A stretch of 64,000 nucleotides of DNA from Escherichia coli (GCF_002854065.1 NZ_CP024152.1), one strand, 5' to 3'; shown: positions 12,001 to 27,000, numbered from the stretch's first letter. Program-made: the numbers.

Positions 12001-15000
12001 GGCATCAACGACAACAAGCCCGTGATGTTGTTTCTGTAGCATCAGTCCCTGTTGTGCAAACAGCTCATGACAACGCTGCCAGGTAAACTCACCCTGTGTG
12101 ATCATTTCTTCAATCTGAGGGCTACAATGGCTGATGCTGTATCCCCACAGACTTTCTTTGTCAGAAAACAGTTCGCGTTTGATAGCCCCCTGCGGCCCCG
12201 TGCCTGTACGCATACGGTGCCATTCTTTATCGGTCGCAGGACAGCTCTCCATACGACGACCACGGAAGCGTTCTGTTGGCGTAACCTGGCGGAAAATATC
12301 TGTTGGTACAGGCTGCCAGCCACCATCGAGTTGATTCACATTGTCGAGCGTCAGCAGCGACCATACGCTGTCAGCACGAACGGGAGTCTGGTTATGATCA
12401 TAACCGTCACAGATAACCAGGTGACCATGCTGAACACGCATCCATAATCCCGCTTCAGCCAGTGTGCGGTGAATAGCCTGGCAGTTTTCCAGCCGTCCTT
12501 CCCGTGCCATTTCCGGCAGACGTTCTCCAAGGTGACGACAGGCATACTGCTGCAGACTTTCTGTTTCAGCGATTTTTTCCGGGCGAACATCAGCGGCAAT
12601 GAAGTCCGGATTATAGCGTCCTGGTGCTTCCACCTGGCTGAAAATGTCTTTTGGTACTGGCGTGTAGTCACCCATTTTTTTCATGAGTTTTTCTGCACAC
12701 CAGGAGGGACCAAACGAGTCAAGCTGTACACCTTCCCTGTTGCGATCCCAGCCATCCATCACCAGAAATTTTCCTTCCATCTGAGACAGGTACAGACCAT
12801 CTTCCGCAAGACGACGATGCAGGGATAACCAGTCATTTACAGGTTCACTGCGTAAACCAGCGACCGCTGTCTGCGCGACATACTCGCGAAAAGTTTGTTT
12901 TTTTCCGCGTGTCCACGCGTTCTGGCGATCACGTTCAACGGCAGTTTTGCGAACGATACGATTTCCCGGCGCATGGACCCAGCAACCGTTATCCGGAGCA
13001 AAACCATGCTTCAGTTCAAGTTCACGGCAGGCACGGCTGAGTTTTTCCTGACTCCATGAAAGGCAATTCAGATAACCTGTAACCGGATGTACCCGGTTGA
13101 CCGCAACGTGAACATGCAGGTTATCAGTATCGGTATGTACGGCAGAAACATACTGATGTTCACCCAGCCCGAGGGATTTCAGGGTATGGCGTACACTGTC
13201 ATAAATCTGTTCCGGACGCGGGCTTTCATGGGCCTGCCAGGAAAGAATGTAGTGAAAAACAGGATCAGTATTATCTTTCGCATAGTGTGCCTGCTGTGCA
13301 ATGTACTCCATATCTGCAGCAGCAGTTTCAAGCGATGTACAGTTGTGAAAACAGGTCACACCGTAAAAGTTAACCCATTCGCAGCCGTCCTTCATGACAT
13401 CAACCAGCGCCACGAATGACTCATTTCGAAGGCGTGTCGCATAATCAACAAGGCGACTGAAACGGCTCCGGTGCGGTTGTTCAGCCTGCGAAGAAGAAGA
13501 TAAATTCAGTTCCTCATCGGTCATGTCATCCCGGACCGAGACGTAGGACACCAGGTCTTCGAACGAAGACTTGCCGTCCCTTCTCTTTTTCGGAATGACT
13601 GCATTCACCGGAGAATCCTCAACCTTCCATTAACTGTTTACGCAATGTATTTGTAAGTTCGGTTATGGCAACAAGCACTTCTGCGTATTCCTTGTCACCG
13701 GTTCTTTTTCCCTGAACAAACAGATGCTTCTGCATCCTTCCCAGTCTCATTAACTCCTTCAGAAAAGCATCATCTGTACGGGAGTTAATTCGCTTATTCA
13801 GTGCTGCATTTCGGATGTAAGCAGATACAGTAAGTCCGGAATCTTCAGCTTTTTTCCTGATGGTTTCATCCTCAACAGGAGAGAATCTGAGTGTCCTGAC
13901 AACTGTCTTTTGCCGTACCTCACTTTTCTTTCTTACCGCACTATCACTCACTTCAGGCTCCTTACGGGGTGTCGGGGCGAAGCCCTGACCAGATGGTAAT
14001 TGTAATAGCGTCGCGTGTGACGGTATTACAATTACACATCCTGTCCCGTTTTTCAGGCCATTATAGCCTGTTATTTTTGTGCATCATAGTCTTATGCAGA
14101 CGGCAGAAGCAGGGCGCAGCCCTGCCAGGAGTCAGTTTTTGATGATAAAATCAGACTTCAACATGAAACGGAGAGAAAGTGCCAATGGCTTCTAAAAAAT
14201 TTTACTCAGATGATGACATCCAGCTGGCAAAAGCTGCCTTATCGGAATTGCCGGACCTCACCGCTCAACGGAAAACATTGCGTGATTTTCTTGATGCCAT
14301 TCGTGATGACATCATTGTCCTGGTAAGGACAAAGGGTTATACACTGGCAGATGTTCGTGACACGCTTAAAAATGCAGGGTATGAAGTAGGAGAGAAGGCA
14401 CTTCGTGACATTATTCGGGAAGCAGAATCGAAAAAACCATCCCGCCGTTCTTCCTCTAAAACAGCACCTAAAAAGACAGATTCAGGCAGGAAAGATGGCA
14501 TCGATATGAACAACAATTGATGTGACAATGTCACATCGTGTTCTGAGATTATGATGGTTACAGAAAAAAAAGCCCCGGCATAAATACCAGGGCTTTTCTG
14601 TTTAATCAGACTCGTGGCGGCAATGCACCAGGATAATGCCGTGCAATAATATCATTCAGTTTTTCAACAAGGTCAGGACGCTTAAAGACAATGTGTACGG
14701 TCCCTTTCTGGTAGCCACGCACCGTAAAATATTCCCCTTCTAACAGCTTACCGACGTTGTCGCCGTTCCCGAGAAATTCACCATACTGCGCCCCGATGCT
14801 GCTCCGGAAGTCAGGAACGTTGCGCCCCTCCAGCAGATAAAAAGGACGTACCAGGTCATCCAGTGCCTCCCGTCCGCTGCAGTCCAGCGTCACACGCCCG
14901 TTACTCCAGCGGTACAGCATGTTTTCAATAATGATTCTCTTGCCCAGACGGCAGGGATTATTGGTTCTGTAATCCCATGACAATTTCCGGTAGACATCAA

Positions 15001-24000: not shown

Positions 24001-27000
24001 TAAAGGAGCCGTCCGGCAGTCCCTGAAGTATTCTGAAATATTCGCTCATCCTCATATCTCCGGTGATGCCCCGCACAGGGCGGGGCGGTTGTCACAGTCA
24101 GCCCGATCAGAACGGGATGTCGTCTGAAAACCCGTAATCCTCCCCCTCCGGCGGTTGCGGCTGAGGCTCTGGCTGCGCGGCCTTACGTCCACGGCCTTTC
24201 GTTTTCGCGCCACCTTTTTTCGTCGCGTCAGCACTCTGTGGCTGCCCATTCTGCTGAGGCTTCGGTTGCGCCTGAGCGTTCTGCTGTGGTGCACGTCCCA
24301 GCATCTGCACGGTGCCCGTGGTCTTAACAAGAATTTCAGTGACGTAACGGGTGATACCGTTATCTTCCCAGCTACGGGTGCGAAGCTGACCTTCGATGTA
24401 GACCTGCGCACCCTTGCGCAGATATTCACCTGCCACTTCCGCGAGCTTGCCGAACAGCACCACGCGGTGCCATTCCGTCTGCTCCCGCATCTCCCCCGTC
24501 TGTTTGTCACGCCAGCTTTCTGATGTGGCCACCTGCAGGTTTGCCACTGCGCCCCCGTTGGGGATGTAACGGACTTCCGGATCATTGCCCAGACGCCCGA
24601 CGAGGATGACCTTGTTGATACCACGTGCACTCATAAGAACCTCCTGACTGAAAGATGTGAGATAAACCGGATACCGGCGACGGGACGTTCATGTGCCCCT
24701 TCAGAGGAGCGAAAGCTCCTCCTGCCGTCCACTTCACAGGGGTTTCTCCCCGCAGTGGACCTTTCCGATGGGGGCCCGTTTACCGCCTCACGGGACAGCT
24801 GTCCGGGGGCGGACGCAAAATTTTTAGCCGGGTTCATGGCTAAAAATTTTGTGGCCGGTGCATCTCACCCTGGACAGATGGAACGGGAGGGGGTTACGTC
24901 TGCCCCCCGGAAAGTCCACAGCGGGAAACAGGCCGCAGGGGTGGCGGCAGGAGGGAGGACTGCTGCGCCATCAGGCGCAGTTTCCTCACACACCGTCAGG
25001 TGTGCAGGGAGCGCAGGTCACGGCGCGACAGGGGCGGCGCGACCGGAACGGTCGCTGCAAGCCGGGTTTTCACGCATCGGACCGTAGCGGCAGCCCGAAA
25101 CCGCGCCAGCGGGTTCGGCGGAGACTGGCGGGTGCGCCAGCAGCTGCCTGTCGGAGTCGGGCCTGACGACCGGATGCCGCCAGGCAGCCGGGAGCCGAAG
25201 TGGGCGCAATAAAAGACAGCCAGAAACGGTGACAGTGTCACGGAATATCACACCTGTTCCCTGCATACAGCCATACACTACCTTCTGACCGGAAAGCCGG
25301 GCCGGCAGCGCCGCAGGCGCTGCACCCCGCATTTCCGGCAGGCGTCAGCCTGCCAGGGGTTTTCGCGCGGGCTGACAGGCGGCCTCCACCGCCTGCCCTG
25401 TATCACCTGTTTCTGCTGCCCTGAAGGATATAGTGACCACCGAGGAAAACCGCCTGCTGATTCGCCACAAAATCGCAGATTTCATCAACAATCTGCGCAG
25501 TGGTGAGCGGTTTCTGCCCCATTTCACGACGCCGCGCATTAATCACGGCTTTGTAATTGCGCAGAATTTCGCGGGTTTCTGTGCTGATATTCATGACATG
25601 TGCTCCCCGTCCAGCGCCTGTAACACAACGTCCATTGCTTCGCGTTCTTCCCTGACGAACGCATCACCGTCGCCCCCGTTCTCACTCCCGACGGCATACA
25701 GGCGCTTCATTTCACTGCCTGCCAGCGCCAACACTTTTTCCAGCATCACCGCCGGGACTGTCACCTGACGGCTGGCGCGCTTTTCTTCCATCAGTTCACG
25801 AACAACGTCGTGAACAACGCTGACATCCGCACCATGCTCAAAGGCATCGTCCAGCCGCTGCATGACGGTTTCCAGCTCATCGTCTGTCAGACTCCAGTCC
25901 TGGGCTATGTGACGCACATCCCCACGGGTCAGCACCACGGCAAAAACGCATTCACTGTCCGGCACGTCTGTATCCAGCACTTCGCGGATAATTTCTTTAA
26001 CAGTACAGTACATGTTCTCGTCTCCTTTACAGGGGCGGCATTGCCGCCCCGTCCGTTAATCAGTCCAGAGCCGCGTAAATCGCGTTGCATTCGGGGTGAA
26101 ATTCGATGTGACGCCACAACTGCGCATCGCGCATCCGGTAAAGCTGGGTCAGTCCTGCATCCCCGCTGTCGTGGTACAGCCACAACTGGCGGTTAATCAC
26201 AAGGGAGGTCAGGATGATGCCTGCGGCATCAGCACTCACGGTACGGTCAAACCAGTTTGCACCGTTCACCATGTGGAAACGGTCGCCATCCGGCATCATG
26301 TAACCGCCACCGTCCGGCAGGCGGATGAAGTGCCAGAAGCCTCCCTGATATTCCGGCATCATTTTTTGCGCCAGCGCGTACACATACGCCTCGGCATACA
26401 GAAAATCGTTGCCAAACAGATACGGCAGAAAGGAGAGACGGTCGCACTCTTCAACATTCAGAGTGACAGGTTTCGCATATTGCATGATGTTTTCCTCCGT
26501 TGTTCACATATTCCGCGACACCGGGCGGTGCCGTGCCTCCATAAAAGCCGGGCGAACAGGCGGGGATGCAGGGGCGCAAGGGAAGCCGCAGCCTGACGCA
26601 CACGGCTGACGGGAGTTGCAGGGTGAGACCGCGAAATCTGAGCGGGTGAACGACCGGAAAATCACGGCAGACGGGAAGGAGGGACCGGGTGACCGCCGCG
26701 TTCATTTTACCCTTGCATCCCCGCCAGCCCGGCTAAGATGGAGGCACGGCACAGCCCGCACACGACACGGCGGCCACATAACTGAAAACCCACAAGGCCA
26801 TGCCCCGCATGGCCGGGTAAAGCGGAGCCGGCGGCGACTTCCTTTGTGCTCTGTCCGGGACCGGCAGGAAAAAGGCGGGGATTTTCCCCGCCATCATCAG
26901 CCCCTGATTTTTGCCAGGGCATCCGCCACGCTACGGATTTCGGCCCGGGCTTCCCGGACAACTTCCCGCAGAACACAACGGTCAAACCACCGGCGGGGCG

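Follow-up and report, generated by a model that had tools for sequence, protein, structure and literature searches.

In plasmid pESBL, RNA sequencing (RNA-seq) of 15-min transconjugants showed that six leading-region operons are induced, by up to ~500-fold, and that a large hairpin precedes each of these six operons, for all of which start sites were placed by 5′ rapid amplification of cDNA ends (5′ RACE) (PMC12672017). The hairpins have been sorted into three classes: class 1 comprises ssi1, ssi2 and ssi3 and is grouped with the Frpo elements of F, class 2 comprises two hairpins located 5′ of klcA and ardA, and class 3 a single hairpin 5′ of M.EcoGIX; class 1 is the strongest in pESBL, and induction is prolonged in a uvrD recipient (PMC12672017). 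Here we analysed a 64,000-nucleotide (nt) stretch of Escherichia coli DNA (NZ_CP024152.1, assembly GCF_002854065.1), hereafter the window, in which three long structured repeats stand before minus-strand genes to the right of an origin of transfer (oriT). We find that these repeats are very probably ssi1, ssi2 and ssi3 themselves, the class-1 single-stranded DNA (ssDNA) promoters of IncI1 plasmids, and not merely Frpo-like sequences.

For IncI plasmids, a model of "three operons transcribed by ssi3-1" has been described (PMC10104558; also PMC3817090), and the supplement of Samuel et al. 2024 tabulates the known Frpo/ssi sequences (PMC11541004). In F, an anti-CRISPR gene behind Frpo guards the plasmid only when it lies in the leading region and in the orientation of the transferred (T) strand (PMC11541004). 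The class-1 transcripts of F also prime complementary-strand synthesis in vivo, while the structural roadblock to that strand which UvrD resolves is a class-2 promoter, not class 1 (bioRxiv 10.64898/2026.01.09.698686).

Identity of the three repeats

A repeat search, together with BLAST of each copy against the whole window, returned exactly three copies, all in one orientation (Table 1). ssi2 and ssi3 are 89% identical over 525 nt, ssi1 and ssi2 80% over 357 nt, and ssi1 and ssi3 78% over 330 nt; thus, of the earlier description of three long, near-identical structured repeats, the number of copies stands, but "near-identical" is too strong for measured identities of 78-89%. The conserved blocks are set apart by short indels (1-4 nt) whose lengths do not keep a triplet frame (register shifts 6341/6345/6344/6342). 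Each core of ~350 nt contains an imperfect inverted repeat of ~240 nt, seen as a self-match on the minus strand.

The three copies were compared by BLAST with the elements of two described plasmids. Against Frpo1/ssi1, Frpo2/ssi2 and Frpo3/ssi3 of ColIb-P9 (sequences from the PMC11541004 supplement) the identities are 98.2, 99.7 and 99.1%, and against the pESBL-EA11 elements (NC_018659.1) they are 98.3% for ssi1, 100% for ssi2 and 100% for ssi3, with the same gene order. The copies in the window thereby share with ColIb-P9 and pESBL-EA11 the three positions, the downstream genes and the orientation to oriT, at 98-100% identity and with few point differences. The three ColIb-P9 elements were reportedly described by Bates and colleagues in 1999 and by Nasim and colleagues in 2004.

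Each repeat ends shortly before a start codon: 27 nt before that of the DUF4942 gene (15454), 30 nt before that of ygcA (18309) and 44 nt before that of ssb (24634). All three genes are on the minus strand, run towards oriT and have a good ribosome-binding site, so that the placement of every copy directly 5′ of a minus-strand gene, and the gene positions themselves, are as had been claimed.

The plasmid carrying this region is, by its sequence, of the IncI1 conjugative type. More than 5000 plasmid records match the 11.5 kb around the repeats, 826 of them with at least 80% coverage, and the top identity is 99.7%. Annotated relatives show the order nikB, nikA, mobC-like, DUF4942, helix-turn-helix (HTH), Rpn nuclease, ydfB, ygcA, ardA, psiA, psiB, ParB-like, DUF905 and ssb, followed by a klcA/ardB block. 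At the left of the repeats, the motif ATCCTG|T at 14038-14044, which we take to be the nick consensus of IncI1/IncP oriT, adjoins a 17-bp inverted repeat, with nikA and nikB immediately to its left. This consensus reportedly goes back to work of Furuya and Komano from 1991. Motif, inverted repeat and nikA/nikB all agree with a nick on the + strand at 14043/14044, the position that the earlier note had assumed. The + strand would then enter the recipient 5′ end first and rightwards, and the region with the repeats is therefore the leading region, consistent with published accounts in which the leading region of IncI1 plasmids is the side with ssb, psiB and ardA (PMC12672017, PMC10104558, PMC3817090).

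Promoter activity, start sites and early induction are ascribed to the three repeats by analogy, from published work on identical or near-identical elements. The earlier note had proposed Frpo/ssi-type promoters that express genes early from the + strand, and the 98-100% identity to ColIb-P9 and pESBL, together with the pESBL RNA-seq and 5′ RACE, bears this proposal out. What these elements are, where they lie and that they are active is already known; because all of this has been documented in plasmids with 98-100% identical elements, the finding adds no new biology.

Folding of the transferred strand

Structure prediction of the + strand repeat as ssDNA, as the earlier note had suggested, gives a stable long hairpin in all three copies. 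The folding energies are -104 to -117 kcal/mol compared with -71 to -76 for dinucleotide shuffles: -104 kcal/mol (z -8.1) for ssi1, -116 kcal/mol (z -10.7) for ssi2 and -117 kcal/mol (z -10.0) for ssi3. These values, with the ~240-nt inverted repeat in each core, agree with the hairpin-forming palindromes noticed earlier. Furthermore, the + strand is more stable than the - strand by 11-17 kcal/mol and contains 5-8 G.T pairs against 0-2, a bias that would be expected only under selection for folding of the + strand.

We aligned eight relatives (48% mean column identity), drawn from ssi1-3, F ssiD and elements from a Serratia plasmid, an insect-gut metagenome and a Salmonella plasmid. The consensus fold of this alignment returns the same long hairpin. 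In it, 84.9% of cells are paired, compared with 44-53% in controls whose partners were slid by 1-3 columns, and both-sided changes are found in 36 of the 57 pairs, whereas these controls give 11-19. The observed values were attained in 0 of 500 shuffles.

The same architecture is found in F. Its Frpo (ssiD), and Frpo1/Frpo2 (ssp1a, ssp1b), have the same long hairpin with an A/T-rich apical stem, a bulged spacer and the GTCCGGGGG/CCCCTGGAC helix, and Frpo likewise precedes ssb in the leading region. Alignment of F Frpo (ssiD) with the copies in the window is confined to the central ~115 nt, at 71-73%; in the lower stem the F sequence differs, while pairing is kept through compensatory changes. 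F has two class-1 copies and IncI1 three. More distantly, the early promoters of phage N4 are also ssDNA hairpins recognised by RNA polymerase, although there the polymerase is phage-borne, the hairpins are short and the sequences unrelated. The sso of rolling-circle plasmids is likewise a folded ssDNA that starts RNA synthesis, with unrelated sequence and a role in priming only (PMC7690428).

Alternative explanations for the repeats

Identity, position and orientation, fold, strand bias, covariation and the absence of a duplex promoter are observations on the sequence analysed here. A first alternative is that the repeats are mainly single-strand initiation sites, at which an RNA primes the complementary strand and gene expression is a by-product. 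Frpo was indeed found first as the ssiD priming signal, and its RNA primes DNA polymerase III in vitro (review PMC7690428); in vivo, the rifampicin-sensitive early conversion downstream of the F class-1 promoters also favours priming (10.64898/2026.01.09.698686). Priming and promoter roles are, however, not mutually exclusive, and a role in priming alone fits poorly with the closeness of each copy to a gene that starts 27-44 nt further downstream and has a good ribosome-binding site, with the strong induction of the downstream genes in transconjugants (PMC12672017) and with the loss of downstream gene expression when Frpo is deleted in F. Moreover, three copies within 10 kb exceed the needs of priming. 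We therefore regard this explanation as very unlikely.

It is still less probable that the repeats lack a function of their own and are in the main scars of recombination, borders between modules or ends of a mobile leading-region cassette. In pO111-CRL115, recombination between R1 and R3 lost the intervening 9.7 kb, and its authors suggested a mobile element (PMC3817090); the 170-nt extension beside ssi2 and ssi3, shared by IncI and IncF plasmids at 95% identity or more, also fits an exchange of blocks at these sites. Yet recombination is a consequence of having repeats and not evidence against their function, which has been shown experimentally in published work; compensatory changes keep the structure across distant relatives, and the orientation is always that of the transferred strand.

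That the repeats are ordinary duplex regulatory or coding DNA (conventional promoters, operators or the small open reading frames, ORFs, of 50-110 amino acids (aa) that occur in them on both strands, some of which the Prokaryotic Genome Annotation Pipeline (PGAP) or submitters annotate in related plasmids as "hypothetical protein" or DUF1472) has a next to negligible probability, given that a consensus scan found no sigma-70-type double-strand promoter match on the - strand inside any of the three copies, that the annotated short ORFs are very unlikely to be genes because the 1-4-nt indels between copies break every reading frame, that changes among relatives keep base pairs rather than codons, that the better folding of the + strand is meaningless for duplex DNA, and that published work shows the leading genes to be switched on only after transfer and to be silent in donors.

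Several points weigh against reading the repeats as class-1 ssDNA promoters. The activity data come from the elements of other plasmids, not from this one, and ssi1 differs from the pESBL copy at ~6 positions. The structure used for the covariation counts was derived from the same alignment, which is somewhat in its favour. The candidate promoter hexamers described below, TTGTGG and TGGACN, match the consensus poorly and were missed by the consensus scan, and for this reason the assignment of the boxes may be wrong. Finally, the 170-nt extension has no assigned role. Even so, we consider the identification of the repeats as ssi1-3 to be very probable.

Hairpin anatomy and candidate promoter boxes

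In every class-1 relative the 3′ arm of the hairpin has the same order, namely an A/T-rich apical stem, TTGTGG or TTGCGG, a bulged spacer and the CCCCTGGAC helix. The spacer bulge is a conserved, unpaired stretch of 9-10 nt (consensus CAT.T), and CCCCTGGAC, paired with GTCCGGGGG via a conserved G.T pair, forms the most conserved helix of the family. TTGTGG and TGGACN, 16-17 nt apart, are the sole pair of hexamers at promoter spacing (15-17 nt) that is kept in ssi1-3, F ssiD, F Frpo2 and the Serratia element, and we therefore take them as candidate equivalents of the -35 and -10 boxes. Transcription in ssi2 would then start near 18450, with a leader of ~140 nt.

Read from loop to base, the 3′ arm runs in the direction of transcription and is for this reason taken as the non-template strand, the 5′ arm, which continues into the gene, being the template. 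This geometry is supported by the class-2 hairpin, which bears TTGCAT ... TAAGAT on its 3′ arm. Two other arrangements were set aside, one with the boxes on the 5′ arm and transcription crossing the loop, the other with the -10 placed in the conserved bulge, as neither offers a conserved partner hexamer at a workable spacing.

Proposed mechanism and transcription units

We propose that the relaxase NikB would nick the + strand at 14043/14044 and that this strand would pass into the recipient 5′ end first. Each arriving repeat would fold on itself as a single strand into an imperfect hairpin of ~240 nt, whose stem would mimic double-stranded promoter DNA with the 3′ arm as non-template strand. 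This arm would supply the A/T-rich apical stretch, the -35-like TTGTGG, the bulged spacer and the invariant TGGAC helix. The host sigma-70 RNA polymerase would initiate at the hairpin, copy the 5′ arm and continue into the gene on the left, giving three early units: ssi1 with the DUF4942 gene, ssi2 with ygcA-ydfB-rpn, and ssi3 with ssb-DUF905-yfhA-psiB-psiA (Table 1). Once the complementary strand is made the hairpin could no longer form and the promoter would fall silent, hence a transient burst of expression. As in F, the class-1 transcripts may also prime complementary-strand synthesis.

With promoters of this kind a plasmid can express protective genes (ssb, psiB, ardA and others) before its second strand exists, and such early protective expression aids resistance plasmids in settling in new hosts.

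Table 1. Features of the leading region, in coordinates of the 64,000-nt window
Feature	Position	Strand	Basis or remark
oriT nick motif ATCCTG|T	14038-14044	+	sequence reading; cut predicted at 14043/14044
ssi1, class-1 ssDNA promoter (very probable)	15481-15833; main hairpin 15521-15752	+	BLAST identity and fold
ssi1 candidate box equivalents	15646-15651 and 15669-15674	+	inferred
ssi2, class-1 ssDNA promoter (very probable)	18339-18686; main hairpin 18376-18613	+	BLAST identity and fold
ssi2 candidate boxes	TTGTGG 18508-18513, 16-nt spacer, TGGACT 18530-18535	+	3′ non-template arm
ssi3, class-1 ssDNA promoter (very probable)	24678-25031; main hairpin 24718-24955	+	BLAST identity and fold
ssi3 candidate box equivalents	24849-24854 and 24871-24876	+	inferred
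Extension, ssi2 and ssi3 only	18687-18856; second copy 25032-25200	+	98% identity between copies
Class-2 ssDNA promoter copies (assigned by similarity)	19547-19900 and 26494-26848	transferred strand	just upstream of ardA and of the klcA/ardB gene
ssi1 unit	14606-15454	-	one gene, 282-aa DUF4942 protein (YdiA family); first gene in this orientation after oriT
ssi2 unit	16317-18309	-	ORFs and annotation of near-identical plasmids
ygcA, 144 aa (ssi2 unit)	17875-18309	-	ORF
ydfB, 88 aa (ssi2 unit)	17517-17783	-	ORF
Rpn-family nuclease gene (ssi2 unit)	16550-17509	-	ORF
77-aa ORF (ssi2 unit)	16317-16550	-	ORF
ssi3 unit	20001-24634	-	ORFs and annotation; ssi3 operon in PMC10104558
ssb (ssi3 unit)	24107-24634	-	ORF
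DUF905 gene (ssi3 unit)	23816-24076	-	ORF
yfhA, ParB-like (ssi3 unit)	21799-23763	-	ORF
psiB (ssi3 unit)	21310-21747	-	ORF
psiA (ssi3 unit)	20594-21313	-	ORF
209-aa ORF (ssi3 unit)	20001-20630	-	ORF

The DUF4942 protein and YgcA

The genes directly behind ssi1 and ssi2 are expected to be expressed early, because they are the first genes behind these elements, whose operons are induced in pESBL. The 282-aa product of the first matches DUF4942 (Pfam PF13708; E 9.9e-51, residues 90-275, profile positions 5-189 of 190) and is a stand-alone module; enterobacterial plasmids encode hundreds of related proteins of about the same length. In the tabulation of Samuel et al. the family has 2171 members, carries the label "Uncharacterized; DUF4942; Methyltransferase" and apparently occupies the first ORF position after oriT, without an anti-CRISPR or anti-restriction match (PMC11541004). 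The protein also matches half of the 548-position phage family phrog_6263, "DNA methyltransferase". It has no methyltransferase match in Pfam or NCBIfam and is without an S-adenosylmethionine (SAM)-dependent catalytic domain; the absent domain and the half-length match speak against a DNA methyltransferase.

YgcA, the 144-aa product behind ssi2, has no match in Pfam or in NCBIfam. Its family counts 1939 cluster representatives at E ≤ 0.001 (~1900 at 50% identity) and includes two PHROG families; most relatives are stand-alone proteins of 130-160 aa. Homologues are found in plasmids and in jumbo, T4-like and cyanobacterial phages, and structural relatives across bacteria and in one archaeon. 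The homologue of phage KVP40 lies among small hypothetical genes. His22, His66 and Arg81 are invariant in the family and Asp82 nearly so, whereas the cysteines vary; the label "Cys/His" given to this protein earlier thus holds for its histidines, two of which are invariant, and not for its cysteines. The predicted model is globular with high confidence (predicted local distance difference test, pLDDT, 96.7). Neither YgcA nor the DUF4942 protein has a significant match to PDB sequences or folds, and in AFDB50 YgcA finds only uncharacterised proteins and misnamed "PndC" entries.

NCBI and UniProt records often label YgcA "post-segregation killing protein PndC". An ORF listing of 17500-18400 contains no Hok-like ORF. 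With no hok-type toxin gene associated, a folded globular protein of 144 aa and 1939 relatives that are mostly stand-alone, we reject this identity; the name is a propagated annotation error. A second lead, ccgAII, a gene after ardA with a role in anti-restriction (PMC3817090), was also dropped, as neither YgcA nor YdfB resembles CcgAII of R46.

Searches of NCBIfam, Pfam and PDB revealed no sequence or fold similarity of either protein to ArdA, KlcA/ArdB, anti-CRISPRs or other known anti-defence proteins. NCBIfam returned no match for six leading-region proteins; PADLOC gave no meaningful match. Judged by order and length, the DUF4942 gene and ygcA have their counterparts in genes 760 (849 bp) and 820 (435 bp) of pMS7163B, respectively. 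A transposon screen of that plasmid gave 760 and 820 slightly positive log2 fold changes after conjugation, and these counterparts are therefore not needed for laboratory mating.

An early anti-defence or establishment role of the two proteins, raised in the earlier note, is plausible but unsupported. For YgcA such a role is conceivable because the protein would be made within minutes from ssDNA, and we hold it unlikely, though worth stating, that this plasmid member of a large undescribed family is a new kind of enzyme or binding protein acting against a host defence or readying the host for the incoming element. The DUF4942 protein, whose gene is the first to enter, could by similar reasoning be a methyltransferase-derived DNA-binding or decoy module. 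Conserved and, by homology, expressed early, both are reasonable targets for studies of plasmid establishment.

Other features of the ssi1 and ssi2 units

A terminator-like hairpin at ~14565-14605, flanked on either side by T-runs, separates the convergent mobC-like (+) and DUF4942 (-) genes. It is probably a two-way terminator that would end the ssi1 transcript after one gene. An Rfam scan of 13500-28500 at E ≤ 1 gave three chance-level hits, none of them inside the repeats; a weak NsiR1 match falls on this hairpin. Between ssi1 and a small HTH gene (16035-16286, plus strand) are two A/T-rich palindromes at 15925-16030 (AAAGTGAA...TTCACTTT; inverted repeat 15931-16022), which look like candidate operator sites of the HTH regulator.

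At the distal end of the ssi2 unit, the 77-aa ORF copies the C-terminal tail of the Rpn nuclease (62% identity over 55 residues, E 6e-18), and the similarity is also present as a repeat at the DNA level. For Rpn nucleases, small proteins made up of the C-terminal part have been reported to act as internal antitoxins. Further upstream in the same unit, ydfB matches by order and length gene "810" of pMS7163B, the induced expression of which leads to a severe growth defect in E. coli; by this correspondence the ssi2 operon would hold an early-expressed protein that is toxic when overproduced. Among the uncharacterised leading-region families of Samuel et al., YdaB/YdfB is the largest (PMC11541004). 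Between ydfB and rpn, pESBL-EA11 has ~460 bp (16431-16894) that are absent from the window (~17430-17460); they include part of a hypothetical gene of 390 bp.

Class-2 hairpins and the 170-nt extension

Two further transferred-strand hairpins for early genes lie in the window between or beyond class-1 copies, 5′ of ardA and klcA, corresponding to "ssp2" of F. They are 81-83% identical to the candidate "Frpo" 4′ of Samuel et al. and 92-97% identical to the pESBL copies, and we assign them on this similarity to the class-2 ssDNA promoters of PMC12672017. The class-2 hairpin folds as ssDNA with a z of -5.2. Class 2 has no sequence similarity to class 1 and carries a clearer -10 (TAAGAT) on its 3′ arm.

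The extension that adjoins ssi2 and ssi3 consists of clustered short G+C-rich hairpins and, relative to transcription, precedes the promoter hairpin; weaker similarity between the two copies runs on to 19009 and 25380. Its fold is far less marked than that of the cores, with z values of only -2.4 and -2.5. At least 5000 plasmids, among them IncF plasmids of Klebsiella, carry it at 95% identity or more, and it is far better conserved across plasmid groups than the promoter hairpin. One simple possibility is that the extension belongs to the ardA and klcA blocks upstream, as a 3′ end common to both. In the Klebsiella IncF plasmid pJX4-2 (9177-11680), a group II intron (ltrA) is located directly after the extension and splits sequence that is continuous in the window.

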